The position numbers and the translations under genes are program-made. The notes under the pieces were generated by a model that was not told where the DNA came from, searched no databases, and was given only the letters and a program-made list of their open reading frames with translations. Shown piece by piece: positions 295-55,861 of a stretch of DNA of 64,000 bases. Position 1 is the first letter of the stretch, and every line of letters begins with the position of its first letter. The DNA is from Gemmatimonadaceae bacterium (GTDB taxonomy: Bacteria > Gemmatimonadota > Gemmatimonadetes > Gemmatimonadales > Gemmatimonadaceae), in the NCBI GenBank assembly GCA_035286465.1, contig DATEDF010000124.1, forward strand, positions 3,242-67,241, given 5' to 3'.

Positions 295-1236
295 TCAGTG
301 CGTGAGCGCGTAGATCAGGTAGTTGACGCCCAGCTTGTACGCTTCGTTCGAGATGTCCACGGGAACCCACCCCGATCCCGACCACTGCCACGACTCGCCG
401 ATGTCGTTGTTGTAATTAATGATCGCGAGCAGGCGCTTCTTCGGATCGTTGTTCTCGTAGATCGCGAGATACGCGGGCCGCCCGTAGGACGAGATGCGCA
501 GTTGCGAGAGGTCAATCTTGTAGAAGGAGTCGAAGATCGGCTCCTTCCCGGTCATCTCCGTCACCCGCACGCCGGGGAGGACCTTCGAGATGGCCTGCTC
601 GAAGGTGCTCCAGTCCTGCCCGGGAAAATCATCCACGATCAGGAAGCCGCCCTTCTGCAGGTACTTCCGGAGCCCCTCGACCTCCTTGTCGTTCGGGAAC
701 CAGCCGCCCGGCTCCGAGAGGTAGGCGACCGGGTACTTGAAGAGGTCCGGCTCGTCGAGCCCGACGATGACGCCGCCCGCGCGGGGTCCCGACTCCTCGA
801 ACGGCCGGAGCGTGGTGATCTCCCGCATGATGCGCATCAGGTGCACCTCGGCGTGCGGATAGTCGTGCGACCAGCCGGGCCCTTCGCGCCCGTTGTAGCG
901 GCCGAAGCCCCGGTACTTGATGCGCGCGAAGGTGAAGCGCCCGTCGTAGGGCGGGTTCCCGTGCCAGTCGGGCGGCGTGAAGAAGTCGTTCGTGAAGAAC
1001 CGGGCGTAATCCCGGGGGTCCATGCCGCCGCCCCCGCGCCCGCCACGGCCGCCGCCGCGCTGGGCGTCCGCGACGGGCACGACCGCGAGCAGCGTCAGGC
1101 AGCCCACCGCGAGGCCGCACACCCAACCGAATCGCTTCGCTCTTCGCAATCCCTTCGCTCTTCGCAATCCCTTCGCTCTTCGCAATCGCTTCGCCCTTCG
1201 CACTTCGCACTTCGCCGTCGTCATGGCCGTCGTCAT
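295..1236 (-). CDS. DUF4159-family protein (Bat/MoxR-operon associated), signal-anchored
   Basis: Track ORF 295..1236. The core WSHDYPHAE...LFKYPVAYLSEPGG...LRKYLQKGGFLIVDDF matches my memory of DUF4159. Hydrophobic segment GLAVGCLTLLAVVPVADAQ. ATGA overlap with the upstream gene. The start is uncertain (ATG 1236, ATG 1224, or an internal GTG) because the 5' end is a tandem repeat. Confidence 0.8.
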   Translation of the reverse strand: MTTAMTTAKCEVRRAKRLRRAKGLRRAKGLRRAKRFGWVCGLAVGCLTLLAVVPVADAQRGGGRGGRGGGGMDPRDYARFFTNDFFTPPDWHGNPPYDGRFTFARIKYRGFGRYNGREGPGWSHDYPHAEVHLMRIMREITTLRPFEESGPRAGGVIVGLDEPDLFKYPVAYLSEPGGWFPNDKEVEGLRKYLQKGGFLIVDDFPGQDWSTFEQAISKVLPGVRVTEMTGKEPIFDSFYKIDLSQLRISSYGRPAYLAIYENNDPKKRLLAIINYNNDIGESWQWSGSGWVPVDISNEAYKLGVNYLIYALTH

Positions 1237-1246
1237 GGCCGTCGTC
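1135..1246. repeat. Tandem repeats: 18-nt unit cttcgctcttcgcaatcc x3 plus degenerate copies (1135-1216), then 12-nt unit gtcgtcatggcc x2.5 (1217-1246)
   Basis: Read directly. Units at 1135-1152, 1153-1170 and 1171-1188 are near identical. On the minus strand they encode RRAKGL repeats. The 12-nt unit duplicates the ATG (MTTA-MTTA). Confidence 0.9.
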
Positions 1247-3962
1247 CCTCCACGATGGTGAGCAGCAGCTCCTGCGCCGGCACGAAGTTCGGCGCGTCTT
1301 CCAGCGCGCGCAGCACGCTCGCGCGCGCCTGCTTCGGGTCACCCGCCTCGTGCCACGCCAGCGCGAGCCGGTAGTGCGCCTCGGCGATGTCCACGGGCGC
1401 GAGCGCGACCACCGCCCGGCGCTCCCGCACCACCTTCGCCTTCTCGCCCGTGGCACGATAAAGATCGGCGAGATGCTGGTGGAGCGCGATGTCGAACGGG
1501 TTGATGTAGAGCGCGCGCTCCAGCGCCTCCGCCGCCTTCGCCGTGTCGCCGAGCTGCTCACGGAGGCGCGACAGCTCGACGTTCGCGCCGAAATCCGACT
1601 CGTTCCGCACGGCGATCTCGGTGAGCGCGTCGGCGGCCTTGCGCCGCTCTCCCCGGGCGAGATAGAGGTGCGCGAGACGCCCGTGGGGCCCGTCCGCGCC
1701 GGCGTACTCGGGGAAGAGCGAGCGTGCCCGCTCGAAGAGCGCGATCGCCGTCGCCGTGTCGCCGCGCCCGGCCGCCGCCTCGCCCGCCATCATCTGCAGC
1801 CGGAAGCTCCTCGGCGCCGCGTTCGCCCGCGAGACGAGCAGCTCGGCGGGGAGCCCCTCCCGCGAGAGCCCCGCCGTGTCGCTCGCGAGCACCGCGAGCG
1901 CCGCGAGCGGGCCCGCGAAGCGCTGCTTGAGCCACGCATCGAAGCGCTTGTCGAGCGCCTTGGGGTCGGCACCGAGGACGGCCTGGAACGCCTGCTCCGT
2001 GGTCCGCCCCGCCTTGTACTCGTTGAGCATCGCGACGAGCGCCTTTTCGCCCCACTCCTTCGCGACCCACTCGCAGAAGAGCGACGCCTCGTAGTACGAG
2101 TGCTGCACCTGTTCGGGGTACGCCGGGCGCATGAAGCCGTCGTTCATCCGGCTCAGCGGCGCGAGCCGGCCCGCGCCGAGCGCGTCGAGGAACCCGACGG
2201 TCACGTGCGCGCCCCACCCGGGCCGGGCGAGGTGCTCCTCGTGCACCGAGAGCCCCTCCGAGAGCCAGCGCGGCACGCGATTCTCCGTGAGCCCGAGCGT
2301 GAAGGTGTGCGCCAGCTCGTGCCATACCACGGAGCCCCAGTTGAACGGCCCCGCGTCCTTGGCCGCGGGCGAGTCGAACGCGAGCGTCGTCCCGAAACTC
2401 ACCCCCAGCGCGCCGACCTCCGGGAGCCCGACCGTCCGCACCGAGAAGTCGGCCTGGCTCCGGTACACCTCGATCCGCACGGGCGGCGGCGGCGTGTACG
2501 CGTACTTCGCCGAGAACAGGGCGTGCGCGCGCTCGAGGAGGTCCGTCAGGTAGACGGAGAGGAGCGCGGATTCACTCTTCTCGATCATCAGCTGGAACTT
2601 CGCGGTGCTGATCACGTCGTAGTTCTTGAACGTGTCGAGCAGGTCGAGCGTGTTCTTGGTCCAGAGGTCGTACGGGTCGCCGGCGAACGCGGTCTCCAGA
2701 CTCTGCTTCCCTTCGGCGATCCTGCCGAGCCGGAGGAGGTTCATTCCGAGGAGGGCGTGCGATCGCCAGCTCTTCGCGTCGGCCGCGACGCCCTGCTTCG
2801 CGAAGTCCGCGGCCGCGGCGTACAGGCGGATGCGCCCGGCGACCTCGGCCATCGTCGCGAAGAACTCGCCGTTGTGCGCATCGAGGGCGAGCGCGCGCTG
2901 CTTCGCCGCGTCGTAGCCGCGCGGGTCGCCGCCCAGGAACCTGAGCGCGGCGGCGAGCGCGAGCGCGCCCCGCGCGGCGGGGTTCACCGCGAGCGCGCGA
3001 TCCACCTCGCGCTGGGCGGCCACGTAGTCCTCGAGGTCCATCAGCCCGCGCGCGCGGAGCACGCGGCCGTCCACGTAGTCGGGATTCACCTCGAGCGCGC
3101 GGGCCAGGAGCGAGTCGGCGCCGGGCTGAGCGTCGAAGATCAGGCGCCGGGCCTCGCCCACGAGCGCCCGCGGGTGCGACGGGTTCGCCGCGAGCACGCC
3201 GGTGAAGGCGGGCTGCGCCTCATTGGAGCTGTACTTCTCGAGAAAGAGCTCGCCGAGCGCGATCCGGGGATCGAGGTCGTCGCCGTCGAGCGCGATCGCG
3301 CGGTCGAACGCCTTGAGCGCGTCCTTGAAGAGCTGCGGATTGTCCACGCCCAGGTACCGGCAGGCGATCGCCACCGCCATAAACTCCCGGCTGGTGAGCG
3401 ACCCGGCGTTCGCGTTGTAGACGTCAATGAAGCGGTCGAACTCCCTGGCCGCGCGCGCGCGCTCCCCCGCGTCGTGGTGCAGGATGGCGAGGTTGAGCCG
3501 CGCGGTGAGACTGTCGGGCGCGTGCGCGAGAACGGCGCGAACGAAGGCGCTCTCGGCGGCCGCGAGCTTCCCGCGCTCGCGCAGCACCTCGCCGAGCGTG
3601 TTCCACATCGCCGCGCCGCCGGCCGGACCGGCGGCCGCGGCGCGCGCCGTCGCCTCCGCCTGATCGTACCGGCCCACGAGGGCGAGCGTGCGGGCGAGGT
3701 CGCGCTGCGCCGCGAGCCACGTGGTGTCGCCGCGCGGAATTCGCGAGAGCGCCGCGATCCCCTCCCGGTACTTGCCGGAGCGCACCAGCTCGCGGGCGTC
3801 GGTCAGGTCCTGCGCCGCGAGGCGGGTACCCATCGCGGAGAAGAGCGGTGTAGCCAGCAGGCACGCGAGGGAGGTGGCGGTGACGCCGCGCGCCGCACGG
3901 CGGCGCCACTCGGTCCGCGGAACGCCGGCCGCCTCAACGTTGCCGCCCGCCTCCCTCTTCAC
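1233..3962 (-). CDS. TPR-repeat protein with embedded gluzincin (peptidase MA-like) HExxH domain
   Basis: Track ORF 909 aa. Zinc motif VVWHELAHTF followed by WLSEGLSVHEE. TPR-like A/L/R-rich helical repeats sit on both sides. The N-terminus is signal-like (LACLLATPLFSAMG). GTGA overlap at 3959-3962 and ATGA overlap at 1233-1236. Confidence 0.8.
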   Translation of the reverse strand: MKREAGGNVEAAGVPRTEWRRRAARGVTATSLACLLATPLFSAMGTRLAAQDLTDARELVRSGKYREGIAALSRIPRGDTTWLAAQRDLARTLALVGRYDQAEATARAAAAGPAGGAAMWNTLGEVLRERGKLAAAESAFVRAVLAHAPDSLTARLNLAILHHDAGERARAAREFDRFIDVYNANAGSLTSREFMAVAIACRYLGVDNPQLFKDALKAFDRAIALDGDDLDPRIALGELFLEKYSSNEAQPAFTGVLAANPSHPRALVGEARRLIFDAQPGADSLLARALEVNPDYVDGRVLRARGLMDLEDYVAAQREVDRALAVNPAARGALALAAALRFLGGDPRGYDAAKQRALALDAHNGEFFATMAEVAGRIRLYAAAADFAKQGVAADAKSWRSHALLGMNLLRLGRIAEGKQSLETAFAGDPYDLWTKNTLDLLDTFKNYDVISTAKFQLMIEKSESALLSVYLTDLLERAHALFSAKYAYTPPPPVRIEVYRSQADFSVRTVGLPEVGALGVSFGTTLAFDSPAAKDAGPFNWGSVVWHELAHTFTLGLTENRVPRWLSEGLSVHEEHLARPGWGAHVTVGFLDALGAGRLAPLSRMNDGFMRPAYPEQVQHSYYEASLFCEWVAKEWGEKALVAMLNEYKAGRTTEQAFQAVLGADPKALDKRFDAWLKQRFAGPLAALAVLASDTAGLSREGLPAELLVSRANAAPRSFRLQMMAGEAAAGRGDTATAIALFERARSLFPEYAGADGPHGRLAHLYLARGERRKAADALTEIAVRNESDFGANVELSRLREQLGDTAKAAEALERALYINPFDIALHQHLADLYRATGEKAKVVRERRAVVALAPVDIAEAHYRLALAWHEAGDPKQARASVLRALEDAPNFVPAQELLLTIVEGRRP

Positions 3963-4960
3963 GTCCGTCCCTCCAGCGCGCGGATCTCGCGCGACTTCCG
4001 CGCCAGCGCCACCAGCAGCCGCTCCAGCTCGTCGTCGTATGCCTCGGCGGTCAGTTGCGCCTTGCGCCGCCGGAGCGCGTCGAGCTGGTCCTCGAGCGCG
4101 AAGCGGTCCGCGTAGAGGGCGGCCAGCCGCGGATCGCCGAGCGCGGCGCGCGCCGTGTACCGGCCGACGTCGAGAAAGAAGCGACGGGCGAGCATGCCGT
4201 CCCCGCCCCGCCCCGTCGGCTCGCCCGTTCCCTGCTTGTCGCCGTCGTCGTCGAGCTGCGCGTGCTCCGACTGGAGGTGCCCCTCGGTCTCGTAGTGGCG
4301 CTTCGTCTCGGCCGCCGCGTACCGGAACGCCTCGAAGAGCGAGACGCGCCCGTCCTTGTCCGTGTCCGCCACGTCCTTCGCGAGCGCGTCCACGAAGAAC
4401 TCCCCGAAGTGCGACTCGTTCCGCTCGAGCGCGGTCTTCGTCGCCGTGATGACCACGCGGTCCGCCCCGGAGAGCTGGCCGAGCATGTCGCCGCTCGCGC
4501 TCGTGAGGTTCACGAACGCGAGCCGCTGCGCCGTGAAGCGCGCGAGGAGCCGCTCGAAGTCGGCCGCCGTCAGGTCGGGCCCCGGGATGGAGAGGCGCGA
4601 GTCCGCGCCCTCGCCCGCGCCGTGGCCGATGAGCACGAAGACGATCTGCGCCCCCGCCTTCGCCCGCGCGGCCACGCCCTCCACCGCCCGCTCGACGTTC
4701 GCCTTCGTGGACTGCCCGGCGTAGCGGGGCGCCGCGCGCGCGGAATCCTCGCCCAGCCAGACGATGTCGGCGTCGGGAATGCCGAACCGCTCGTGCAGCG
4801 CGCCCGAGAGCCGGAGCGAGAGCGCGCGGAAGCGCGCGCTGTAGCGCGTCTCGCCGCCGAGGCCGGAGACGATGAGCACGTGCGTCTGGGCGCCGAGCGG
4901 GAGCGCGCGGAGCGGAAGCGCCGCGAGCAGCACCAGTGCCGCGAGCGATGCGCGCCTCAC
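3959..4960 (-). CDS. Secreted caspase/legumain-fold (peptidase C13-like) protein with an EF-hand-like Ca loop
   Basis: This is the C-terminal 333 codons of track ORF 3959..7345. The real start is GTG at 4960 (VRRASLAALVLLAALPLRALPLGAQ, a signal peptide), overlapping the upstream TGA as GTGA. Motifs: HVLIVSGLGG, FVLIGHGAGEG (His-Gly dyad), NLTSASGDM and DTDKDGRVSLFEAF. Confidence 0.55.
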   Translation of the reverse strand: MRRASLAALVLLAALPLRALPLGAQTHVLIVSGLGGETRYSARFRALSLRLSGALHERFGIPDADIVWLGEDSARAAPRYAGQSTKANVERAVEGVAARAKAGAQIVFVLIGHGAGEGADSRLSIPGPDLTAADFERLLARFTAQRLAFVNLTSASGDMLGQLSGADRVVITATKTALERNESHFGEFFVDALAKDVADTDKDGRVSLFEAFRYAAAETKRHYETEGHLQSEHAQLDDDGDKQGTGEPTGRGGDGMLARRFFLDVGRYTARAALGDPRLAALYADRFALEDQLDALRRRKAQLTAEAYDDELERLLVALARKSREIRALEGRT

Positions 4961-7293
4961 GCGAGCCCCCGCATCTTCCGGTACGCCCACTCGCTCCCCA
5001 CCAACGCCACGAGCAGGAGGAAGTTCACGGGCATGTCCCACAGGTCCATCTCGTTCACCACGGTCACGCCGCGCTTGCTCATCGCCACGTCGGCGGCGAG
5101 GGTGCCGATCCCGGCCGGCGTGTAGAAGCGGCCGCCCGTCTCGTCGGCGATGCGCCGGAGGAGCGACGCGCGCATCTCGGCGTCCACGAACTCGGCGTCC
5201 AGCTCCGCCACCCGCACGAACGCGGTGTCGGCCGCGGGGACGCTCTCGTCCCGGCGCTTCGCCTCGACGCGCACGACGTGAATGCCCGGCTCGTCGGGCG
5301 TGAAAGTCGCGCGATACTCGCCGTCGCGGTCCACGGCCCACTCGAGCGGCACGTCGCGCACCGTCTTCGACGGGCTCACCACGTGCGCCACCACCTCGGC
5401 GTCGTTGACCTTGAGGTGCGCGCTGTCCACGACCTCCGTGCGCAACTCCACCGGGCTCCGCGGATTCACCTGGTCGGGCGCGGCGCGCACGGTGACGCGG
5501 CCCGGGACGTCGCTCGTGAGCCAGCGCAGGAGCTGCCGCCAGAAGGTCGTGAACGTCGGGTCGCCGACGGGAATGTCGGCGTGCATCTGCCAGGTCCAGG
5601 AATCCTGGATCGGCAGCGCCACTGAGAGGCCGCGTCCATACCGCTGGTACACCAGCACCGGCTGCTCGTAGCCGGAGAGCGGCTCGCCGGGTTCGCCCGC
5701 GCGGCCGAGGCGCGGCGTCCGGCCGGTGATCAGCGTGACGGCGCCCGGCTTCACCCGGCGGATGCGGTTCACCGACGTGACCCACGGCAGCGTACGCCAC
5801 CGCTCCGCCGACTTCGCGGGATCGCCGGCGACCTGCGCCACGGCGTGGCTCTGGCCCGGCGGCGTGAGCGAGACCGCGAGATCGGCGAGGAGCGTGAGAC
5901 TGTCGGCGACGGCGGGCCCCTCGATCTCCACCGGCATCACCTCGGCGAGCGGCGTGCCCGCGTAGCCGCCCTCGGCGAACGCGCGCCGTGCGCCGAGGAG
6001 CAGCAGCCCGCCGCCGCGCACGCTCACGAAGTCGGCCAGCATCGTGAGCTGGTCGTGCGTGAAGAAGCTCGCTTCGATGCCGCCCAGCACCACGGCGCGG
6101 TAGCGGTAGAGTTCCGCGCGCGTCTTCGGGAAGCCGCCGAGCAGCTCGTCGGGGCCGTCCACGCCGAGCCGGAGGAACTTCCCCTCGGCCGTGCGCTGGA
6201 GCGCCACGAGCTGGAGGTTCGAGTCGGCCTCGACCGCGGCGCGGATGAAGCGCATCTCGTAGCGCGGCTCGCCCTCGACGTAGAGGATCTTCTCGCGTGC
6301 GTCGCGCACGCGCACCAGCGCGCGCTGGGCGTTGTTCTGCGTGACCTGCTCGCCCGCCTGGAGCGGGATGCGGAAGGTGAGCGTCCGGGCGCCGGGGTCG
6401 TTGAGCCGCGCCTGCACGCGCACGGGCGCCACCTCGCCGTCGCGCGGGAGCTGGACCTCCGTGCTCGCGACCACGCGGCCCTCGTCCTCGACGACGAGCG
6501 GCACCTTCGCGCCGGCGAATCCGCGCTGCCGCACCAGCACGTCGGCCATCACGGTGCTCCCCTCGAGCACCGCGTGCGCGCTCTCGACCCGGCGCACCTC
6601 GATGTCCTTCTCGAAGCGCTCGGCGCCGATCCCGACGGTGAACACCGGCACCGACCGGGCGCGGAGCGTCAGCAGCTCGTCGGCGATGGGGGTCCGCGCG
6701 TTGTCGGCGCCGTCGGTGAGCAGGACCATCCCGGAGAGCGGCAGCGACTCCATGTCGCGCCGCGCGGCCTCGAGCGCGTCGCCCAGCCGCGTCTCGTTGG
6801 CGTTGAAGGCGAGCCGCGTTCCGCCCTCCATCCGGTCCGCGGTGGCGCCGAAACGGAAGAGCCGCACCTGGAACTTCTCCTGGAGGGCGTCGAGGAGCGC
6901 GCTCCGGGGCGCGAGGATGGAGTCGCGCACGAAGTCGGCGCGCGCGCGGCCGGAGCGGTCGGCGATCTGCATGCTCCGGGAGTCGTCGAGCAGTACGCCG
7001 ACGTAGTTCCGGTGCGGCACCGCGGACGAGAGCAGGAGCTTCGGCCGGAAGAGCAGGACGACCAGCACGAGGAGTGCCGCGATCCGGAGCGCCACGAGCA
7101 CGACGCGGTCCCGCCGCGTGCTCTTGCCCCGGACGCCGCCGTAGGAGAGGAGCGCGGGCACCCCGATAGCGAGCCCGATGAGCGCCAGCACGATGAGCGG
7201 TGCGGGCGCGCCGAAGCCGAGGTCCCCCTGCTCGAAGACCGCGGGCCGGTACTTGAAGAAAAAGGCGAAGAGCGCGCCGAGCGCGTCGGTCAT
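4957..7293 (-). CDS. BatA-like membrane protein: N-terminal double-TM domain, vWA-like domain, large extracytoplasmic region, C-terminal TM
   Basis: Track ORF 4957..7347. ATG at 7293 is preferred (MTDALGALFAFFFKYRPAVFEQ.., two TM helices). GVLLDDSRSM.. is a MIDAS-like DxSxS. C-terminal helix VNFLLLVALVGSEWAY. It is the first gene of the Bat-like operon. Confidence 0.7.
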   Translation of the reverse strand: MTDALGALFAFFFKYRPAVFEQGDLGFGAPAPLIVLALIGLAIGVPALLSYGGVRGKSTRRDRVVLVALRIAALLVLVVLLFRPKLLLSSAVPHRNYVGVLLDDSRSMQIADRSGRARADFVRDSILAPRSALLDALQEKFQVRLFRFGATADRMEGGTRLAFNANETRLGDALEAARRDMESLPLSGMVLLTDGADNARTPIADELLTLRARSVPVFTVGIGAERFEKDIEVRRVESAHAVLEGSTVMADVLVRQRGFAGAKVPLVVEDEGRVVASTEVQLPRDGEVAPVRVQARLNDPGARTLTFRIPLQAGEQVTQNNAQRALVRVRDAREKILYVEGEPRYEMRFIRAAVEADSNLQLVALQRTAEGKFLRLGVDGPDELLGGFPKTRAELYRYRAVVLGGIEASFFTHDQLTMLADFVSVRGGGLLLLGARRAFAEGGYAGTPLAEVMPVEIEGPAVADSLTLLADLAVSLTPPGQSHAVAQVAGDPAKSAERWRTLPWVTSVNRIRRVKPGAVTLITGRTPRLGRAGEPGEPLSGYEQPVLVYQRYGRGLSVALPIQDSWTWQMHADIPVGDPTFTTFWRQLLRWLTSDVPGRVTVRAAPDQVNPRSPVELRTEVVDSAHLKVNDAEVVAHVVSPSKTVRDVPLEWAVDRDGEYRATFTPDEPGIHVVRVEAKRRDESVPAADTAFVRVAELDAEFVDAEMRASLLRRIADETGGRFYTPAGIGTLAADVAMSKRGVTVVNEMDLWDMPVNFLLLVALVGSEWAYRKMRGLA

Positions 7294-7333
7294 CAGGGCT
7301 GTTTGGAGGGGCGTGAGCCGGGGGGTGGTGCGG

Positions 7334-7369
7334 CCCCCCGGCCACATCTATTTAACACGTGCCGGGGGG
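7334..7369. promoter_or_regulatory. Perfect 9-bp GC inverted repeat (ccccccggc / gccgggggg) bracketing an AT-rich 18-nt box that contains TAAATAGAT on the minus strand. Candidate promoter/operator of the Bat-like operon.
   Basis: Read directly in the divergent intergenic region 7294-7444. The AT-rich box is 52 nt upstream of ATG 7293. Confidence 0.3.
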
Positions 7370-8482: not shown

Positions 8483-9358
8483 CTACAGCGCCTTCACCGC
8501 CGCTTCGATCTGCGTCGCGTTCCCGCTCACGACGTACGTGATCCGGCCATCCGCGCTGATGACGTACACGAGCGACGGATGGGACAGATCGCCGGTCTTC
8601 ACGTTCCGCACGCGGGGCACGCGCCACCGGTCGAGCGCGCGCTCCACCTCCTCCGGCGCGCCACTCAGCACGTGCGCGTCGCCCGTGATTCCCCACTGCA
8701 TCGCGATCGCCGGCAGCCGGCTCGGCGTGTCGCGCCACGGGTCGAGCGTCAGCACGAGCACCACCGGCGGCCGCGCGCCCAGCCGGTCGCGCGCGAGCAG
8801 GACGTCGGAGACGGTGAGCGGGCACACGGTCTCGCAGTGCGCGTAGGCGAACGTCACGAGCACCGGCCGGCCCCGGAACTGCTCGAGCCTCACCGTGCGA
8901 CCCGCCTGATCCGTGAGCGCCATCGCCGGCGGCGCGTCGTTCACGCGGGTGAGCTGCCGCGCGAGGTCGGCGGCCGGACTCGTGGCGAAGGGTTGCGCGC
9001 TGGCCTCGCGCACCCGGACCACCACGCCTCCGAGCCCGGCCACCAGGCCGGCGAGCGTCACGCCGACCACCACCTGCCCCGAGGCCCGCTGCAGCACTGC
9101 GCGCAACCCCTCACGGACCTCGCGACCCCACGCCGCATAGAGCACCAGCACCATCCCGAGCGGCTGCCCCACGAGCAGCAGCCAGCCGCCGGCGTTCGGC
9201 AGCCCGTCGAGCGCGGCGCCGAAACACACCAGGCGCGTGCGCGCCATCCAGCCGGGCGTCGCCGCGCTCATCGGCCACAAGGCGAGCGCCCACCACGAGG
9301 CGGTGATCACGAGGATCAGCGCCAGCGCGGCGAGCGCCGCCTTGCCCGGCCGGGACAT
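8483..9358 (-). CDS. SCO1/SenC copper chaperone with extra N-terminal multi-TM domain
   Basis: Track ORF 8483..9475. ATG 9358 (MSRPGKAALAAL..) lies 2 nt after the oxidase I stop. Thioredoxin-fold CxxxC motif FAYAHCETVCP, and a distal His in DLSHPSLVYVI. Confidence 0.8.
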   Translation of the reverse strand: MSRPGKAALAALALILVITASWWALALWPMSAATPGWMARTRLVCFGAALDGLPNAGGWLLLVGQPLGMVLVLYAAWGREVREGLRAVLQRASGQVVVGVTLAGLVAGLGGVVVRVREASAQPFATSPAADLARQLTRVNDAPPAMALTDQAGRTVRLEQFRGRPVLVTFAYAHCETVCPLTVSDVLLARDRLGARPPVVLVLTLDPWRDTPSRLPAIAMQWGITGDAHVLSGAPEEVERALDRWRVPRVRNVKTGDLSHPSLVYVISADGRITYVVSGNATQIEAAVKAL

Positions 9359-9360: not shown

Positions 9361-11112
9361 TCAGCCGATCTTCCATACCGCCGAGAGAATCTTCCAGTTC
9401 GTGAAGAAATAGAGCGCGAACGCCGCGAGGAAGACGAGCACGAACACCATCGTGCCCGGCGCCGGCCCCATCCACCCCTTCGCCGCACCGTGCAGCTCGG
9501 CGTTCCGCTTCTCCACGTCGGCCGCGTGCACGGGCGGATTCCAGATGCCCTGCGGCACGCCGACCATCGCGACGCCCTTGGTGATGACGCCGAGCGGCTC
9601 ACCGAAGAACACCGACTTGACCGCGATCGCGATGAAGATGAACGCGGCCGTGGCGGCCATCACGCCGCCGAGGGCGACAAAGGCCAGAATGAGATCCACC
9701 GCGGGATTGAAGGGCACGGTGAACGCGGCCTGGCTGAAGGTGATGTCCCAGTGCCGGCGCGGGACGCCGAAGCTCCCCGCGAACGTCATCGCCAGCGTGA
9801 AGATGGCCATCCCGCCGGCGAAGAGATACGGCTGGATCTTCGCGAGCGTCCAGAACGCCACCTTCTTCCGGAACACGAGCGGGATCAGGTAGTACGTCGC
9901 CCCCATGAAGGCCAGCGCCGTGCCGAGCGCGACCGTGGCGTGGAAGTGCCCGGGCGAGCGCAGCGTGTTGTGCACGATGATGTTGATCTGCTCCGTGCCG
10001 ATCGTCACGCCCGTGATGCCGCCGATGAAGCCGAACCCCACGACCGAGAACACGAGCGAGCTGAAGCCGGGATCGCCCCACGGCGCCCGCCGCAGCCAGT
10101 CGAACATCCCGCGCGTGAACCCGCGCAGCCGCATCCCCAGCTCCATCCCCGCGGGCACCGTGAACCCGTGAATCATCGAGGCGAGCACCGCCATGTACAT
10201 GAAGTAGCTCGTGTTCGCCACTTTCCACGCCGGCCCCATCCCCGGATCCACCAGCAGGTGGTGCGCCGACGCCATCGAGATGAACAGGATGTAGAGCACG
10301 AACGCCGAGCGGCTGATCTTCTCGTTGAGCACCACCGCGCCGATGGTGAGGGCCCCGAGCATGTACCAGAGCGCCACCATCGCGGCGACGTTGATCTGCT
10401 GCGACGAGTGGCCGAGCGCCCACCAGATGAGCCGGTAGACCTCGGGATCCACCTTCATCAGGCCCAGCGACCAGAGGAAGGTCGGGATGTAGATGATCGC
10501 GCCGTGGACGAGCGTGATCACGGCGATGATCGCCGCGGTCATCGCCCCGTACACGACCAGGGGCAGCGATCCCTCGTAGCGCTTCTCCCGTTTGGCGACC
10601 ACGAGGTTCGCGAAGAAGATCCCCGTGACGATCAGCGCGCCGACCGCGAAGAGGATGATGCCGAGGTAGAACGCCGGATGCGCGCGCAACGGCACGTAGG
10701 ACGTGAAGAGCACGTCGGCCTTGCCGGCCCACATCAGCACCTCGACCATCAGGGTGCCCACCAGCATGAGCGCGAAGGAGAACCAGGAGAGCCCGGGTGC
10801 GCAACAGCGGGCGTTGACCAGCGCGGTGCTCGCGAAGTGCAGCACCGCCATCTCGAAGAAGATGATCCAGAAGATGAGCATGCTCATCCCGTGCACGCCG
10901 AGGATCCGGTAGAACCAGTCCGCCGGCAGGAGGTGCACGGCCTGCCACCGCGTGAGTACGACCAGCACCGCGGCGGCCGCGCCGACGAGCAGCGCGACGA
11001 CCGCCACGACGGCGTTCACCCGGACCAGCAGCTCCGCCTTGTCGTGGATCCTGAGACCCGTGACGCCGCACGTGCGGAAGACGGCGGCTGGTCTTGCGGC
11101 CGGGGCGGTCAT
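9361..11112 (-). CDS. Heme-copper oxidoreductase catalytic subunit I, B-family (ba3)-like, with an atypical active-site motif
   Basis: Track ORF 583 aa, about 12 TM. His ligands: GVHGMS, WWALGH, SAHHLLVDPG, PGHFHATV. The helix-VI motif is GHSSQQ instead of GHPxVY. ATGA overlap with subunit II. Confidence 0.9.
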   Translation of the reverse strand: MTAPAARPAAVFRTCGVTGLRIHDKAELLVRVNAVVAVVALLVGAAAAVLVVLTRWQAVHLLPADWFYRILGVHGMSMLIFWIIFFEMAVLHFASTALVNARCCAPGLSWFSFALMLVGTLMVEVLMWAGKADVLFTSYVPLRAHPAFYLGIILFAVGALIVTGIFFANLVVAKREKRYEGSLPLVVYGAMTAAIIAVITLVHGAIIYIPTFLWSLGLMKVDPEVYRLIWWALGHSSQQINVAAMVALWYMLGALTIGAVVLNEKISRSAFVLYILFISMASAHHLLVDPGMGPAWKVANTSYFMYMAVLASMIHGFTVPAGMELGMRLRGFTRGMFDWLRRAPWGDPGFSSLVFSVVGFGFIGGITGVTIGTEQINIIVHNTLRSPGHFHATVALGTALAFMGATYYLIPLVFRKKVAFWTLAKIQPYLFAGGMAIFTLAMTFAGSFGVPRRHWDITFSQAAFTVPFNPAVDLILAFVALGGVMAATAAFIFIAIAVKSVFFGEPLGVITKGVAMVGVPQGIWNPPVHAADVEKRNAELHGAAKGWMGPAPGTMVFVLVFLAAFALYFFTNWKILSAVWKIG

Positions 11113-11702
11113 CGGACACCTCCCGAACCGCTCGGCGCGACCGGCGCCGCGGCCGGCGCCTCCTCGACGATCACGCGACCGACCATCGTGTGATGGCCGA
11201 TGCCGCAGAACTCGTTGCAGATGATGCGGAAGTCACCCGCCGAGGTCGGCGTGACGCGCAGGCCGTAGTCGTAACCCGGCACGATCTGGAAGTTCACGTT
11301 GATCGGATAGAGCCCGAACCCGTGGTTCATGTCGAGCGACGAGAGGTGGAGCGTGTACTCCTTCCCCTTCTGCAGCTTGAGGATCGGCGTCCACTGGAAG
11401 GTCATCGCCGCGAGGTAGACGTCCGCGCCGGGCGGCGGCGCCACGATCGGCATGCCGCGATCCTCGCCGACCTTGTACTGCGCGATGAACTCGTTGGTCC
11501 GCTTGAAATAGGCCTCGGGCGTGGTGCGACGCCGGATGCCCGAGGGGTTCTGGCCGCCCTTCCAGTGCCAGAGCGGCATCATGGCGAAGAGCACCATGCA
11601 CCAGGCGAAGGCGATGGCGACCCACGTCTTTTCCGCCTTGTGCGCGGGCTTCCACCAGACGCCCTTGGGCGAGTCGAGGCCCGTGTGTGTGTCAATGTGC
11701 AT
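11109..11702 (-). CDS. Heme-copper oxidase subunit II with CuA centre
   Basis: Track ORF 197 aa. One N-terminal TM helix, a cupredoxin domain, and CuA ligands in SLDMNHGF and ICNEFCGIGHHTM. Confidence 0.9.
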   Translation of the reverse strand: MHIDTHTGLDSPKGVWWKPAHKAEKTWVAIAFAWCMVLFAMMPLWHWKGGQNPSGIRRRTTPEAYFKRTNEFIAQYKVGEDRGMPIVAPPPGADVYLAAMTFQWTPILKLQKGKEYTLHLSSLDMNHGFGLYPINVNFQIVPGYDYGLRVTPTSAGDFRIICNEFCGIGHHTMVGRVIVEEAPAAAPVAPSGSGGVR

Positions 11703-11711
11703 GGGCGCGCC

Positions 11712-11882
11712 TCACGGGAGAGTCGCCGGGGGGAGAGTGAGGATTTCCCACATCCCCCAGCCGGTGAAGATGACGAACATGATGACCACGCCGAGCACGA
11801 GCAGCAGGAACATGTTGTCGAACAGGCGCTGGCCGAGCGGAATGGGCTCCTGCGGCGACTCCTTGGGTGTTGGATCGGGCAT
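11712..11882 (-). CDS. Small single-TM protein (56 aa), candidate oxidase subunit IIa-like accessory subunit
   Basis: Below the track size cutoff. My translation: MPDPTPKESPQEPIPLGQRLFDNMFLLLVLGVVIMFVIFTGWGMWEILTLPPATLP. ACGGAG lies 7 nt upstream of the ATG. The stop is 9 nt before the subunit II ATG. GC3 is high. Confidence 0.5.
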   Translation of the reverse strand: MPDPTPKESPQEPIPLGQRLFDNMFLLLVLGVVIMFVIFTGWGMWEILTLPPATLP

Positions 11883-11969
11883 GGGCGCTCCGTCTTCCGA
11901 AGGTCTATTTTCCTGCAGGGCTTTTCACGGGCGGGACAAGCGACGACATTATAGCACAAAAAGTGGTAT

Positions 11970-13637
11970 GTGCCATACTTGTTTTCCAGTAAAGTAACCG
12001 TCTCGCCGGGCACGCACGCCCGAACTCTCGCCCATCCCATCCGGCCGACTCGCCCGATCGCCGCTCCCGTGGCCGCCCCTTCCCGCCCCACCGAACGCGT
12101 CGCCGAACGCGCGCTCATCGCGCTCGACGCCGTGTGCAACCGTCTGTACGGCTGGCGGGGCAACCCGCTCTACCAGAGCGGCACGATCGTCTTCGCGCTC
12201 TTCCTGGTGCTGCTCGCCACGGGACTCTGGCTGATCTTCTTCTACCGGGTGGGAGCGCCGTACGCGTCGGTGGCGCGCCTGACGGCGAACCCGTGGATCG
12301 GCAACTGGGTGCGCGGCTTCCATCGCTACGCGAGCGACGCCGCCGTGGTCGCCGCGCTGGTGCACGCGGTCCGGATGTATGCGCAGGGCCGGAGCTGGGG
12401 CCCGCGCGCGCTCGCCTGGATGACGGGCGTGCTGATGCTCATCGTCGTATTCATCTGCGGGTGGACCGGCTACGTGATGGTGTGGGACACTTTCGGCGAG
12501 CTGCTCGCGCGCGAGGGGGCGCGGATGCTCGACACGCTGCCGGTGCTCTCCGAGCCTACCGCGCGGGTGTTCACCGGCGAGCGGCCGATTCCGAGCGTCT
12601 TCTTCTTCCTCAACCTGTTCGCGCACGTCGGGCTGCCGCTCGCGCTCTTCGGCGGGCTCTGGCTGCACGTCTCGCGCGTGGCGCGCTCGGCGCTCCTCCC
12701 GCCGCGGCCGCTGCTCTGGAGCGTGATCGGGCTGCTCTTCGCGCTCTCGGTCGTACGCCCGCTCGCGATGGCGCCCGAGGCGAATCCATTCCGGCTTGCG
12801 GACGCGGTGCCGGCCGACTGGTTCTACGCCTTCTGGCTGCCGCTCTCGCGCTCGCTCGCCGCCGGTCCCGCGCTCGCGGGCGCGGTGCTGACGGCGCTCG
12901 CGCTCCTGCTCCTGCCCGTCGCCACGCGGCGGCGCGGGGCGTCGGCGCCGCCGCCGTCGCAGGTGGACGAGAGCCTCTGCACCGGCTGCCGCCAGTGCTT
13001 CGCCGACTGTCCGTACGAAGCCATCACGATGCGCACGCGCGCGGACGGCCGGGCCGACGAGGTGGCGCACGTCACGGGCGACCGTTGCGTGAGCTGCGGG
13101 ATCTGCGCGGGCTCGTGCGCGCCGATGGGCGTCGGTCCGCCGGGCCGCACGGGCCGCGACCAGCTCGAGCGCGTGCGGGAGTATCTCGCGCGAGCGGAGC
13201 CCGGGGCCGGCACGATCGTCGCCGTCTGTTGCGCGCGCGGCGCGGCGCGCTTCGGCCATCTGCTGGCCGCCGACGGCGCTGCGCTCCATCCTGTGGACTG
13301 CGCGGGGAACCTGCACACATCGGCGATCGAGCTGCTCATTCGCGGCGGCGCCGGGGGCGTGCTGGTGCTGGCCTGTCCTCCGCGCGACTGTTGGAACCGG
13401 GAGGGGCCGCGCTGGCTGATGGAGCGCATCTATCACGACCGGGAGGCGGAGCTGCAGCCACGGGTGGACCGGCGTCGCGTGCGCGTCGCGTACGCGAACG
13501 CCGGCGAGCCGAGCGCGGCATTGGCGGCGCTGCGCGAGTTCGCGGCGCAGGTCGCGGCGCTGGGCGCGACCACCGCGGAAGGGGCCGTCGAGCTCGAGGC
13601 GGTCTGCGAGCCGGCACCGGTGGCGGAGCGCTCGTGA
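11970..13637 (+). CDS. Fusion protein: cytochrome b (N-terminal, 4-5 TM) + 2x[4Fe-4S] ferredoxin + MvhD/FlpD-like domain
   Basis: Track ORF 555 aa. Cytochrome b signatures FHRYASDAAVVAALVHAVRMY, W..GV..L....GY...WD and FFFLNLFAHVGLPLALFGGLWLH. Ferredoxin motifs CTGCRQCFADCP and CVSCGICAGSCAP. MvhD-like IVAVCCARG...VDCAGN...GGAGGVLVLACPPRDCWNREG. The start is uncertain (GTG 11970 in an AT-rich spacer, or in-frame GTG 12069). Confidence 0.8.
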   Translation: MPYLFSSKVTVSPGTHARTLAHPIRPTRPIAAPVAAPSRPTERVAERALIALDAVCNRLYGWRGNPLYQSGTIVFALFLVLLATGLWLIFFYRVGAPYASVARLTANPWIGNWVRGFHRYASDAAVVAALVHAVRMYAQGRSWGPRALAWMTGVLMLIVVFICGWTGYVMVWDTFGELLAREGARMLDTLPVLSEPTARVFTGERPIPSVFFFLNLFAHVGLPLALFGGLWLHVSRVARSALLPPRPLLWSVIGLLFALSVVRPLAMAPEANPFRLADAVPADWFYAFWLPLSRSLAAGPALAGAVLTALALLLLPVATRRRGASAPPPSQVDESLCTGCRQCFADCPYEAITMRTRADGRADEVAHVTGDRCVSCGICAGSCAPMGVGPPGRTGRDQLERVREYLARAEPGAGTIVAVCCARGAARFGHLLAADGAALHPVDCAGNLHTSAIELLIRGGAGGVLVLACPPRDCWNREGPRWLMERIYHDREAELQPRVDRRRVRVAYANAGEPSAALAALREFAAQVAALGATTAEGAVELEAVCEPAPVAERS

Positions 13638-14263
13638 ACACGCTCCCCCGCGCGGCCGGCGCCGCGCTCGCCATCGTCCTCACGCTCGCGCTCGGGTGGG
13701 CGTCCGACGCCCCGATGCCCGCGTTCCGACCCACGGACGCGGTGGTGCGCGTGAGCTGGGGCGCCCGCCCCGAGCGCATCGAGACGTGCCGCACGCAGAG
13801 CGACGAGGAGCTGGCGAAGCTGATGCCGCAGATGCGGCAGCGCGTCGTGTGCGAGGGGACCACCGCGCGCTACCGGCTCGAGGTGCGCCACGACGGCCGT
13901 CTGCTCGCGTCGCAGGAGGTGCGCGGCGGCGGGCTGCGCCACGATCGCGAGCTCTATGTCTTCCGCGAGTTGCGGGTGCCGCCGGGCCCGTCCTCGCTCG
14001 ACGTGCGCTTCGTGCGGCTCGACTCCGTCCCGGCGGAACGGGAGGACGCGCGCGAGCGCGGGCCAGGCGCGGACAGCGCGAGCGGCGGCATCTCCCCGGA
14101 GCGCGTGCGCCGCGAAACCGAAGAGCGCCGGCGGCGCCGCGAGGAGGCCGTGCCGGCATCGCTCGCGCTCCGCTCCGACGTCACGCTCCGGCCCCGTGAG
14201 GTGTTGCTGGTGACCTACGACGCCGAGGCGCGCCGGCTCGTCGCTGTGCGGCGCACGCCGTGA
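13634..14263 (+). CDS. Hypothetical signal-anchored protein (209 aa), no recognised domain
   Basis: C-terminal part of track ORF 12134..14263. GTG 13634 overlaps the upstream TGA (GTGA). N-terminus VNTLPRAAGAALAIVLTLALGW. High GC3. Its own stop overlaps the ctaA start (GTGA). Confidence 0.6.
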   Translation: MNTLPRAAGAALAIVLTLALGWASDAPMPAFRPTDAVVRVSWGARPERIETCRTQSDEELAKLMPQMRQRVVCEGTTARYRLEVRHDGRLLASQEVRGGGLRHDRELYVFRELRVPPGPSSLDVRFVRLDSVPAEREDARERGPGADSASGGISPERVRRETEERRRRREEAVPASLALRSDVTLRPREVLLVTYDAEARRLVAVRRTP

Positions 14264-15375
14264 AACGTACGCTCGGCCGCGTCCTCGCCGTCTGGGCCGC
14301 GATGGTCGCGCTCCTCGTTCTCATCGGCGGCGCCACGCGCCTCACCGAGAGCGGCCTCTCGATCACCGAGTGGAAGCCGGTGAGCGGCGTCGTCCCGCCG
14401 CTCGGCGACGCGGCGTGGGCCGAGGAGTTCGCGAAGTACCGGCAGATCCCCCAGTACCAGCAGCTCAACGCGGCGATGACGCTCGGCCAGTTCAAGGCGA
14501 TCTACCTCTGGGAGTACGCGCACCGGTTCTGGGCGCGAGTCGTCGGCGTCGCGCTCGTGCTCCCGCTGCTCTGGCTCGCCGCGCGGCGACGGCTCCCGCG
14601 CGACACGTGGCCGCGGCTCGTCGGCCTGCTCGTGCTTCTCGGCCTCCAAGGAGCCATGGGCTGGTGGATGGTCGTGAGCGGGCTCTCCGAACGCACGAGC
14701 GTGAGCCAGTACCGGCTCGCGGCGCATCTCGCGATGGCGCTCGTGATCTTCCTGTTCACGCTCTGGACGGCGGCGGGGCTTCTCGAGGAGCGGCCGGCGC
14801 CGCGCGAGCCGGGAGACGCGAGGGCTCGCGATGCCGCCGGTGCGGGGCACGGCACGCGGGGTTGGCGCGCTACGGGGGTTCGGCGCGCGCTCGTCGCGCT
14901 CCTGGCGCTCGTGTTCTTCACCGCCGTGACCGGCGCGTTCGTCGCGGGCCTCGACGCGGGAAAGATCTACAACACCTTCCCGCTGATGGGCGCCGGGCTC
15001 GTGCCCGCCGAGTACGGCCAGCTCCAGCCCGCGTGGAAGAACTTCTTCGAGAATCCGTCGGCGGTGCAGTTCAACCACCGGTGCGTCGCGATCGTGACAC
15101 TGGTCGTGGCCGTGCTGCTCTGGGCCAGGCTCCGGCGCGCGGGTGACGAACGTCTTGCGCGACGGATGGGGTACGTCCTCGCCGCGGCGCTGCTTCAGAT
15201 GGCGCTCGGCGTCGCGACGCTCCTCCTGAGCGTCCCCGTCTGGCTCGGCGTCGCGCACCAGGGCGGGATGCTCGTCCTGCTCACGGCTGCGCTGCTCGCG
15301 CTGCACGCGAGCCCGCGCGGGGAGGCGGTCAGACCCTCGCTGACGCCTGGAGATGCCGTCGCGCCGTCGGCGTGA
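14260..15375 (+). CDS. ctaA: Heme A synthase (COX15/CtaA family)
   Basis: Track ORF 371 aa. GGATRLTESGLSITEWKP, YLWEYAHRFWARV, FNHRCVAIV. Multi-TM. Confidence 0.85.
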   Translation: MKRTLGRVLAVWAAMVALLVLIGGATRLTESGLSITEWKPVSGVVPPLGDAAWAEEFAKYRQIPQYQQLNAAMTLGQFKAIYLWEYAHRFWARVVGVALVLPLLWLAARRRLPRDTWPRLVGLLVLLGLQGAMGWWMVVSGLSERTSVSQYRLAAHLAMALVIFLFTLWTAAGLLEERPAPREPGDARARDAAGAGHGTRGWRATGVRRALVALLALVFFTAVTGAFVAGLDAGKIYNTFPLMGAGLVPAEYGQLQPAWKNFFENPSAVQFNHRCVAIVTLVVAVLLWARLRRAGDERLARRMGYVLAAALLQMALGVATLLLSVPVWLGVAHQGGMLVLLTAALLALHASPRGEAVRPSLTPGDAVAPSA

Positions 15376-17255: not shown

Positions 17256-18350
17256 TCAGGGCCGCGCGAGCTTCGTCTTCGTCCACATCGCGATCGTCGT
17301 GCACGCGCGCCCGCTCACCTGGAACTCGGCGGGCACGTCGGCCGGACTCGAGTAGATCTCGACCGCCCCGACGTTCACGGCGTGGAACGCCTCGTCGAGG
17401 TCGCCCGGCTGCATCTGCTCGAAGCGCGCGTGGTCCACGAAGATGATGACGCAACCCGCCTCGGACAGGCCGGTGTTGCGCGTGGCCTGCACGACCCGTC
17501 CGGAGCCGCTCGACCGGACCGTCAGCCCCGGCACGGTCTGGAGCAGGTCGGTGAAGAGCAGCGGGTTGCGCTGTTCCACTTCCTCCGGGGAGATGAACCG
17601 GCCGCGGCCGAAGCGCTTCCGGTCCTCGAAGCCGATCTGCTTGAGGGCGTCATCGAGCTTCCCCACCACGCGCACCGCCTCGAGGAGGCGCGCGTCGGAC
17701 ATCGTCACCGTGACCTCGCGTGGCCGGAGCGTCGTGAGGTTCACCGCGACCGTCGCCGGCGCGTAGCCGATCTTCCTGGCCACGGTCGTGTGCGTGCCGG
17801 ACGGGAGCCCCGAGAGCGAGAACGCGCCGTCGGCTCCGGTGACCGCGTTCGCGCTCGTCCCCTCCACCGCCACCTGCGCGCCCGCGACCGGCGCGCCGCT
17901 CCGCGCCAGCACGCGTCCCTGCAGGACGGCGCGCGTGGCGCCCGAGACGTTGAGCGTGAGCACCGCCCCACCGAGCAGCCGGTCCGTGAACGCGATGGGC
18001 ACCTCGGGCGTGGTGAGCGCGCCGCGCGCGGCCTGCACCGTGCCGGCGTAGCGCTCGGGGAGCCCGCAGATCGCGAAGGTGCCGTCGTCCGCCGAGCGTG
18101 CGCGGCGGACGCGCTCGGCCGGCGGCTGCGCGAGCGAATCGGTGTAGACGAGCGAGACGTTCGCGCCGGCCAGCGGCGCGTCGGTATCGGCGTCGAGCAC
18201 GCGCCCGAAGAGGATCGCCGGCGCCCTGACGACGCCCCCCGGCGGGCAATAGCGCGCTTTCGCCTGGTCGTACGTCAGCACGCCGCCCTGCGCGTTCGCC
18301 ACACACGCGGCGAACGCGCACAAGACGGGGAGGAGCGACGCGCGGCTCAG
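17256..18350 (-). CDS. Secreted CarboxypepD_reg-like domain protein with TonB-plug-like C-terminal domain
   Basis: The track ORF starts at TTG 18323 (MCAFAAC..), which truncates a signal peptide. An in-frame CTG at 18350 overlaps the upstream TGA (CTGA) and gives LSRASLLPVLCAFAACVANAQ. Internal motifs: LQGRVLARSGAPVAGAQVAVEG.. (CarboxypepD_reg) and FTDLLQTVPGLTV (plug). Confidence 0.7.
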   Translation of the reverse strand: MSRASLLPVLCAFAACVANAQGGVLTYDQAKARYCPPGGVVRAPAILFGRVLDADTDAPLAGANVSLVYTDSLAQPPAERVRRARSADDGTFAICGLPERYAGTVQAARGALTTPEVPIAFTDRLLGGAVLTLNVSGATRAVLQGRVLARSGAPVAGAQVAVEGTSANAVTGADGAFSLSGLPSGTHTTVARKIGYAPATVAVNLTTLRPREVTVTMSDARLLEAVRVVGKLDDALKQIGFEDRKRFGRGRFISPEEVEQRNPLLFTDLLQTVPGLTVRSSGSGRVVQATRNTGLSEAGCVIIFVDHARFEQMQPGDLDEAFHAVNVGAVEIYSSPADVPAEFQVSGRACTTIAMWTKTKLARP

Positions 18351-21640: not shown

Positions 21641-21768
21641 GGGATCACCTGCGAATGGGGGAGCGTTCGAGCCGAACGCCATCTATAAAATACGAGCGCG
21701 GCGCGGCGGCCGTTGGCGGCGCGTCCGGCCGGAGACCGGGGATCGCGCGAGGCGCTCGCCGAACCACT

Positions 21769-48933: not shown

Positions 48934-49069
48934 CGGATGGGAAACGGACTCGAGAAACTCGCCACTCGAGGCCGTCATGCCACGCTCTCGGAGCGGAAAG
49001 TCACGCCATACGCTGCCGCGTGCGCACGCGCGGAGCAAGAGGCAGGCCTGCTGCGGCCACACGACGCGA

Positions 49070-52479: not shown

Positions 52480-52486
52480 CGCCGGC

Positions 52487-54136: not shown

Positions 54137-54153
54137 CGTCGGGATTGCGGCCG

Positions 54154-55830: not shown

Positions 55831-55861
55831 CGTCTCGCCCTCGGTTGGCCGCGCGAAACGC

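Follow-up and report, generated by a model that had tools for sequence, protein, structure and literature searches.

A CuA-containing heme-copper enzyme of probable eNOR type, and the genes around it, in a Gemmatimonadaceae bacterium

A heme-copper oxidoreductase that keeps the metal ligands of an oxygen reductase and has lost the tyrosine of its active site raises the question of what it reduces. Such an enzyme is encoded in the window analysed here, a stretch of 64,000 nucleotides (G+C content 69-75%) from contig DATEDF010000124.1 of a Gemmatimonadaceae bacterium (assembly GCA_035286465.1), by two genes on the minus strand, one for subunit II (11109..11702) and one for subunit I (9361..11112). 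The real genes of the window were picked by a codon-position GC filter. With a probability of roughly 0.8 the two genes encode a CuA-containing nitric oxide (NO) reductase of the eNOR family; on this assignment the protein is an ordinary member of an already described family and belongs to a very common subclade. A preliminary description of the locus had proposed a B-family-derived enzyme of the NO reductase type, without the tyrosine and with a CuA subunit. The glutamine found at the diagnostic position and the place of the protein in a clade of glutamine-bearing sequences uphold this proposal and narrow it to eNOR.

Metal ligands, helix VI and the CuA site

Subunit I comprises 583 amino acids and matches Pfam COX1 (E 5e-57). 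Its best relatives of solved structure, found by phmmer against the PDB, were the CbaA chains of the Thermus ba3 oxidase (E ~1e-44), and the residues were matched by rebuilding the ba3 fragment from the HMMER alignment and checking its numbering. The histidines of the motifs GVHGMS (His74), WWALGHSSQQ (His235), SAHHLL (His284/285) and PGHFHAT (His389/391) correspond, in this order, to ba3 His72, 233, 282, 283, 384 and 386. By alignment to ba3, His74 and His391 are the low-spin heme ligands, His389 is the high-spin heme ligand, and His235, His284 and His285 are the ligands of metal B, none of the three being replaced; all six canonical histidines claimed in the preliminary description were present.

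The motif of helix VI, G234-H235-S-S-Q238-Q239 (10396..10413, minus strand), is diagnostic for the family. Its direct translation, repeated here, is GHSSQQ, and the HMMER alignment places it over ba3 G-H233-P-I-V-Y237 with the second glutamine, Gln239, at the position of the cross-linked Tyr237, as had been proposed. A tyrosine occupied the cross-link position in 14 of the 14 classical B-family sequences compared, whereas the query has glutamine. The ba3 oxidase of Thermus thermophilus (PDB 1EHK, 3S8F) shares with the query the six histidine ligands, the CuA subunit II and the K-channel residues Tyr248, Ser309 and Thr315, and differs from it in reading G-H-P-I-V-Y-F-W where the query reads G-H-S-S-Q-Q-I-N. 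A B-family O2 reductase of the ba3 type was ruled out by GHSSQQ, which lacks the helix VI tyrosine of G-H-P-x-V-Y; the eNOR family, unlike ba3, is expected not to reduce O2.

At the K-channel positions the family has invariant Tyr250 (ba3 Tyr248), Ser312 (Ser309) and Thr318 (Thr315); ba3 Thr312 is replaced with an invariant His315, and ba3 Tyr244 with Val246. A putative K-channel-like proton path, resembling that of the B-family, appears to be conserved. Compared to the classical B-family, the glutamine clade, as seen in 50 diverse sequences, has fixed Glu87 (ba3 Ala85), Gln238 (Val236), Gln239 (Tyr237), Asn241 (Trp239), His315 (Thr312), Tyr274 (Phe272) and Tyr303 (Val300). This 50-sequence set spans further bacterial phyla and haloarchaea, and in it the two glutamines and the other signature positions were 96-100% conserved. 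In an alignment of 191 sequences, which consisted of two main bacterial subclades and one haloarchaeon, 152 positions were at least 98% conserved, all metal ligands included.

Subunit II is composed of one N-terminal transmembrane helix and a cupredoxin domain on the periplasmic side, in which the CuA site is complete. Its comparison with ba3 CbaB (E 1e-17, phmmer against the PDB) aligned the CuA ligands, the motif H-x34-C-x3-C-x3-H-x2-M (MNHGF...CNEFCGIGHHTM) lying over ba3 CNQYCGLGHQNM; the full CuA site of the preliminary description was in this way confirmed. The same motif is kept in the subunit II homologues of Thermus, Defluviimonas and Thermomicrobium. NCBIfam CoxB is a weak match to subunit II, and no NCBIfam model reaches its cutoff for subunit I or subunit II. 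The subunit II stop and the subunit I start overlap in the sequence ATGA (11109-11112).

Family assignment and distribution

The eNOR family was reportedly first defined and proposed by Hemp and Gennis in 2008. The residue at the tyrosine site has been given as diagnostic, being tyrosine in oxygen reductases, glutamate in cNOR and qNOR, asparagine in sNOR and glutamine in eNOR (PMC8756737, Table A4). Murali et al. (2024) described the families without the tyrosine that derive from the B-family, among which eNOR, sNOR and nNOR have CuA-type subunits; members of eNOR are Rmar_0161 of Rhodothermus marinus DSM 4252 and the 'cytochrome a1-like hemoprotein' of Magnetospirillum (PMC11214002). The purified R. 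marinus eNOR reduced NO at 0.68 per second at 25 °C, did not reduce O2 and carried heme As in both sites; ctaA was reported within many eNOR operons (PMC11214002).

The query shares with the R. marinus and Magnetospirillum enzymes the glutamine in place of tyrosine, the three metal-B histidines, the CuA subunit II, the K-channel-like residues and the presence of ctaA and sco1 in the cluster, and it falls in the same glutamine clade as the eNOR lineages named in the literature. It differs from known eNOR in its membership of a separate subclade, that of Gemmatimonadota, Vicinamibacterales and Thermoanaerobaculia, which shares about 55% identity with sequences of the Rhodothermales type, and in its gene order, the genes for a cytochrome b/iron-sulfur (Fe-S) fusion and orfX, and here also ctaA, being divergent from subunit I and not downstream of it.

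The other tyrosine-less families were excluded by their published descriptions and by motif. The sNOR family and bNOR (qCuANOR of Bacillus azotoformans) are, like the query, B-family-derived NO reductases or candidates with cupredoxin subunits, but have asparagine at the tyrosine position (PMC8756737), bNOR being stated to share the sNOR active site (PMC11214002); both were ruled out by Gln239. In gNOR an aspartate replaces one metal-B histidine and subunit II lacks the CuA ligands (PMC11214002), and this family was ruled out by the three metal-B histidines and the complete CuA site of the query. The query has H-S-S-Q-Q on helix VI, H-H-L-L-V on helix VII, a CuA cupredoxin subunit II and a His/His low-spin heme, which ruled out cNOR, qNOR and nNOR. 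This group is described by the motifs H-x-Arom-x-E and H-H-x-Arom-Arom-x17-E (PMC3084760) and by a cytochrome c or fused subunit II, and the low-spin heme of nNOR is His/Met.

The trees were distance-based, each obtained by neighbour-joining (NJ) with 100 bootstraps from some 500 columns that aligned well. The glutamine clade that holds the query was recovered in 100 of 100 bootstraps and includes sequences of haloarchaea, Anaerolineae, Thermus (of the His/Lys type), Thermomicrobium and Rhodothermales metagenome-assembled genomes (MAGs), whereas the classical tyrosine-bearing GHPxVY proteins of the B-family, ba3 included, fall outside it. The comparison with O2-reducing clades suggested in the preliminary description therefore did not place the protein in a tyrosine-bearing, O2-reducing clade. 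Within the glutamine clade the query groups with Gemmatimonadota and Vicinamibacterales in a subclade of 100% NJ support, Thermoanaerobaculia being near relatives.

The same support (100%) joins the glutamine clade with archaeal sequences that retain the tyrosine, the sequences ending in Q-Y forming a basal grade. These archaeal proteins have the motif GH-[TS]-x-Q-Y and are 37-45% identical to the query (P0125, P0126 from a Hodarchaeales MAG, P0132 from a Thermoproteota MAG, and P0144). Like the query they have Glu87, Gln238, Asn241, Tyr274 and His315, P0126 and P0132 being 41-45% identical to it; unlike the query, the archaeal relatives keep the active-site tyrosine and are without Tyr303. 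Presumably they reduce O2, and an oxygen-reducing intermediate toward eNOR is a plausible role for them. The basal position of the Q-Y grade, with ba3 outside, fits the published origin of eNOR from oxygen reductases, and the eNOR lineage is, as far as the sequences indicate, derived from those of the B-family.

The family proved better known and commoner than the preliminary description had implied. The search of a large protein database gave 8000 matches to subunit I, of which the top 120, all at least 79% identical, came from Gemmatimonadota and Vicinamibacterales MAGs and were named 'cytochrome c oxidase subunit 1' or 'cbb3-type...'; the suspected mis-annotation as an oxidase is thereby documented. 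A genome scan with one genome per species found relatives of the query in more than 575 species-level genomes (E <= 1e-3), the best 80 being 72-83% identical to it. From 1.8 billion cluster representatives a complete HMMER search retrieved only 1237 matches at E <= 0.001, and the full-length ones formed three main groups, GH-x-x-Q-Q, GH-[TS]-x-Q-Y and the classical GHP-x-V-Y-F-W, with a few odd ones besides that lack canonical ligands. The Q-Q group was represented by P0121 and by P0127, the latter from Natrarchaeobius, a haloarchaeon, at 55% and 41% identity to the query, respectively. Further scans, for which P0121 and a protein of a Rhodothermales MAG served as seeds, extended the Q-Q type to Myxococcota, Leptospiraceae, Planctomycetota, Opitutales, Balneolales (the isolate Fodinibius halophilus among them) and Rhodothermales.

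The degenerate DNA pattern W-x2-G-H-[PGRA]-[AS]-Q-Q-[VI]-N matched at least 120 stretches, and 118 of the 119 new loci found with it encode homologues, 40-72% identical to the query. Among the matches listed are homologues from numerous Anaerolineae, Thermus altitudinis, Natrarchaeobius chitinivorans, Aquificota, Nitrospirota and Alphaproteobacteria. Homologues are also carried on a Defluviimonas plasmid (50% identical), on the Thermomicrobium roseum megaplasmid (52%) and on Thermus thermophilus plasmids (47-49%). The motif GH-x-x-Q-Q was present in all 229 loci fetched by protein similarity and in 115 of 116 pattern-match loci with a subunit I homologue, the remaining one being a truncated ORF (open reading frame) with an empty motif line. 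The two glutamines are invariant over these approximately 345 homologous loci, and the substitution is therefore neither a sequencing accident nor due to chance.

Some members have G-H-F-K in place of G-H-F-H, the second histidine being replaced with lysine (L230 and L255 of Thermus, L248, L308 and L346 of Aquificota, and also L249). A His/Lys low-spin heme has been reported for some eNORs (PMC11214002), and the G-H-F-K of the Thermus and Aquificota members matches this variant. On the Thermus plasmids the eNOR gene adjoins an Rrf2 regulator, and genes for a multicopper-oxidase-domain protein and a cytochrome c lie about 1.7-4.8 kb upstream. A second eNOR type, with GHGSQQ, occurs in some Gemmatimonadota MAGs (L236, L291; also L332) and clusters with haloarchaeal sequences and not with the clade of the query, which suggests an inter-domain transfer. 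More distant proteins resembling heme-copper oxidoreductases, all without the canonical ligands, were also met (P0176 from a Dehalococcoidia MAG, P0185, P0212 and P0266, besides P0228 and P0260). One such distant group has F-H-x-x-H-Y on helix VI, L-Y-H for H-H, and G-Y-F-H, A-Y-L-H or A-Y-V-H for G-H-F-H; in another the first CuB histidine is replaced with glutamine (F-G-Q).

Points against the assignment and rival explanations

Several points weigh against the assignment. Only one eNOR has been assayed, that of R. marinus, and none from Gemmatimonadota or Acidobacteriota. The tie of the query to it runs through proteins of Rhodothermales MAGs (GHPAQQ, ~55% identical) and through lineages named in the literature, the R. 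marinus protein not being among the matches listed from three protein-seeded genome scans (query, P0121, Rhodothermales MAG protein) and the DNA pattern scan. Helices VII and VIII carry three tyrosines that do not vary in the 191-sequence alignment (Tyr274, Tyr303 and Tyr306), and Tyr303 (helix VIII) arises at the node at which the active-site tyrosine is lost. Lastly, Pfam scans that covered some 35 ORFs of the 64-kb window, and tblastn searches in which NirK, NirS, Rrf2 and Crp of related loci were the queries, found no nir, nar, nos or nor-regulator genes. The window being without nir, nor-regulator and nos genes, a respiratory role in the source organism is therefore unproven.

The last point bears on the explanation that the protein is a genuine eNOR with a non-respiratory job, either the detoxification or scavenging of NO in an aerobic soil bacterium, or a part in a larger complex, to which the cytochrome b/Fe-S fusion would also belong and in which NO (or another oxidant) would be coupled to quinol or to redox carriers of the cytoplasm. 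The gene context was counted by clustering the ORFs of 188 non-redundant loci, subunit I being recovered in 187. A copper nitrite reductase (TIGR02376, 358 bits, above cutoff) was present within 10 kb in 14 of the 188 loci, five of these 14 lying within the query's own clade, and a cd1 nitrite reductase (Pfam Cytochrom_D1, 406 bits) in 7. The nitrite reductase genes near eNOR, with five nirK-linked cases within the query's clade, support an NO-related role of the family. The non-respiratory explanation can point to the lack of nir, nar and nos genes in the 64 kb, to the fact that a nitrite reductase gene stands within 10 kb in only 21 of the 188 related loci, and to the cytochrome b/2x[4Fe-4S]/MvhD-like fusion, which is co-located in about 80% of the loci; moreover, a Ferrigenium preprint reports such proteins from the eNOR operon as well as from the proteome and proposes a supercomplex (10.64898/2026.01.22.701106). 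The chemistry at the active site would, however, still be NO reduction, which makes this explanation a refinement and not an alternative, and denitrification genes are often scattered in genomes, only the 64-kb window being covered here. It is considered unlikely.

The second explanation is that the enzyme is still an oxygen reductase, in which Tyr274 of helix VII or Tyr303 or Tyr306 of helix VIII replaces the cross-linked tyrosine, as in the C-family. In its favour are the invariance of the three tyrosines in the 191 sequences and the distribution of Tyr303 (codon 10204-10206, minus strand), which is specific to the glutamine clade and replaced with Leu, Ile or Val in the tyrosine-retaining sister sequences. 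It is further favoured by the O2 dependence of heme A synthesis and by the fact that eNOR hosts are aerobes or microaerobes (PMC11214002).

The cofactor tyrosine of the C-family lies on helix VII (PMC3084760). The 191-sequence alignment has an invariant Ile278 at the position six residues before the HH pair. This position we take, from the P. stutzeri cbb3 structure, to be that of the C-family tyrosine. The preliminary description had named a helix VII tyrosine as in cbb3 as a possible substitute; the C-family position is not a tyrosine, and what stands of the proposal is that other invariant tyrosines (Tyr274, Tyr303, Tyr306) exist. Tyr274 is placed roughly one turn of the helix deeper, 10 residues ahead of the HH pair, and is 96% conserved in the 50-sequence set. 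It is at the depth of the lost K-channel Tyr244 (now Val246) and therefore looks like a channel residue; being present also in the tyrosine-retaining sister clade, it is no compensation for the loss of the active-site tyrosine.

The tyrosine of VALWYML, also named as a candidate, is indeed found downstream, at 11 and not 13 residues after Gln239 (15 after His235). This Tyr250 was rejected as a substitute cofactor, since it aligns with the K-channel Tyr248 of ba3, a residue also present in oxidases that bear the active-site tyrosine. An AlphaFold2 model built on 33 close homologues had a mean pLDDT (predicted local distance difference test) of 56.8, with values below 50 across residues 234-343, which form the active-site helices. 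The structural models of a published study of the family gave no sign of tyrosine migration, and none of the donors tried supported O2 reduction by the R. marinus enzyme (PMC11214002). An oxygen reductase with a substitute tyrosine is accordingly regarded as very improbable.

A decayed or non-functional oxidase paralogue, its tyrosine lost by drift, has the missing tyrosine and nothing further in its favour and appears already effectively refuted by the conservation pattern, that is, by the conserved positions and metal ligands of the 191-sequence alignment, the near-fixed signature residues of the 50-sequence set, the number and close identity of the relatives across species, and an operon that is intact and translationally coupled.

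Companion genes, proposed mechanism and meaning of the locus

Subunit I is followed on the minus strand by the gene of a SCO1/SenC-type copper chaperone with an N-terminal membrane anchor (8483..9358; Pfam SCO1-SenC E 5.5e-23), whose likely start is the ATG at 9358, two bases after the subunit I stop, the maximal ORF reaching 9475. The SCO1/SenC protein presumably serves CuA assembly. A divergent intergenic region (11703..11969) separates the subII-subI-SCO1 genes from an operon on the plus strand that is composed of a cytochrome b/Fe-S fusion, orfX and ctaA, each pair being joined by a 4-base start/stop overlap; the promoters of both operons presumably lie within this region. The heme A synthase gene (CtaA/COX15, 14260..15375, plus strand; Pfam COX15-CtaA E 2e-105, NCBIfam heme A synthase E 1e-91) had been described as adjacent. 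It is indeed nearby, but belongs to the divergently transcribed operon of the opposite strand, and with ctaA in the cluster an a-type heme would fit the gene context.

The fusion protein (11970..13637, plus strand, as the maximal ORF) matches Pfam Cytochrome_B, Fer4 and FlpD and probably starts about 40-55 codons downstream of the maximal ORF start. It consists of a b6-like diheme cytochrome b with about six transmembrane helices and invariant His118, 132, 219 and 233, of two [4Fe-4S] ferredoxin motifs with eight invariant cysteines, and of an FlpD/MvhD-like domain in which Cys421, 444 and 469 are conserved at 95%. Its PDB matches were cytochrome b6 (E 2e-17) and the ferredoxin domains of HdrA and NuoI. 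From the topology of the cytochrome b and a positive patch after the sixth helix, the Fe-S part is predicted to be cytoplasmic. The orfX product (13634..14263, plus strand) has about 209 amino acids, an N-terminal hydrophobic segment and two conserved cysteines, and gave no match in Pfam, NCBIfam or PDB; its gene is translationally coupled to the cytochrome b/Fe-S gene (overlap GTGA) and to ctaA.

The same companions recur in the 188 loci. Near subunit I, subunit II was found in 177, the fusion in 152, SCO1 in 142 (immediately downstream of subunit I), an Rrf2-family regulator in 51, a UbiA-type heme O synthase in 38, CtaA in 30, a Crp/Fnr regulator in 13 and an FGE-sulfatase-like gene in 11. 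BLAST clustering placed orfX in 56 (query's clade); within that clade orfX was present in 63 of 80 loci, and ctaA stood within about 4.5 kb of subunit I in 32 of 80. The 152 loci with the fusion belong to Gemmatimonadota, Acidobacteriota, Myxococcota, Bacteroidota/Rhodothermota, Planctomycetota, Verrucomicrobiota and Alphaproteobacteria. The fusion stands beside eNOR in both bacterial subclades; in that of the query it diverges from the eNOR genes, and in the other it lies downstream of them and points the same way, in the order subII-subI-(SCO1)-cytb/FeS-orfX (128 of 149 loci). The genes of the Defluviimonas plasmid run subII, subI, cyoE, SCO, cytochrome b protein, hypothetical protein and hemerythrin; its cytochrome b protein shares 34% identity with the fusion of the window, and an orfX homologue (30% identity, pairwise E 5e-9) occupies the same position as orfX.

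Other genes of the window that were noted, without evident link to the eNOR cluster, are an upstream block on the minus strand (295-7347) with a DUF4159 protein, a 909-aa TPR/peptidase-MA protein and a 796-aa protein without a Pfam match, a cluster for glycogen metabolism (51037-58654), and two Sortilin/BNR-repeat proteins of about 1100 amino acids (18347-21682 and 45616-49062).

The cytochrome b/Fe-S partner is not mentioned in the main text of the PNAS eNOR paper, and only a 2026 preprint on Ferrigenium straubiae was found to mention such proteins with eNOR. The common operon, according to this preprint, comprises eNOR II, eNOR I, heme o synthase, sco1 and an 'eNOR scaffold protein'; of two cytochrome b/Fe-S proteins encoded in the operon it says that they are 'rather unusual', and it reports them in the proteome and suggests a supercomplex (10.64898/2026.01.22.701106). 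The product of orfX is possibly this scaffold protein. The locus counts suggest that the cytochrome b/Fe-S partner is the rule and not the exception. The fusion and orfX are conserved companions of eNOR, with electron input or a part as accessory subunits as candidate roles. A speculative reading, less likely than not, would make eNOR in most bacteria the core of a module of four components, with the cytochrome b/Fe-S/MvhD-like fusion and the small, membrane-anchored orfX product as partners, forming a transmembrane electron link from the quinone pool or a cytoplasmic carrier to NO reduction, and not a two-subunit enzyme fed by cytochrome c.

The mechanism of the eNOR core can be outlined by homology only. 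A periplasmic one-electron donor would reduce the CuA of subunit II, from which electrons would pass to the low-spin heme (His74/His391), and at the active site two NO would be converted to N2O and H2O. Without the His-Tyr cofactor, Gln239 standing in its place, the fourth electron for O2 reduction would not be supplied. Protons would probably be taken from the cytoplasm through the K-channel analogue (Thr318, Tyr250, His315, Ser312 and perhaps Tyr274); with cytoplasmic proton uptake, NO reduction would therefore be electrogenic. The neighbouring genes would provide the cofactors, CtaA the a-type heme and SCO1 the CuA site.

The eNOR finding itself adds little, the enzyme being of a known kind: the family was proposed in 2008, NO reduction by it was demonstrated in 2024, and metagenome studies now count it routinely. 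In a 2026 estuary study eNOR ranked highest of the nor types in abundance and in expression (PMC13592168). What the window shows is the scale, a tight eNOR subclade of Gemmatimonadota and Vicinamibacterales in more than 575 species-level genomes. The enzyme is routinely mislabelled as an oxidase and is unrecognised by NCBIfam models, and inventories of N2O producers that use standard annotation would therefore miss such organisms. On how eNOR is wired into the respiratory chain, more may be learnt from the conserved cytochrome b/Fe-S/MvhD-like partner, the accessory module being a lead of moderate weight; the four-component module, if true, would alter the bioenergetic accounting of eNOR-based denitrification.

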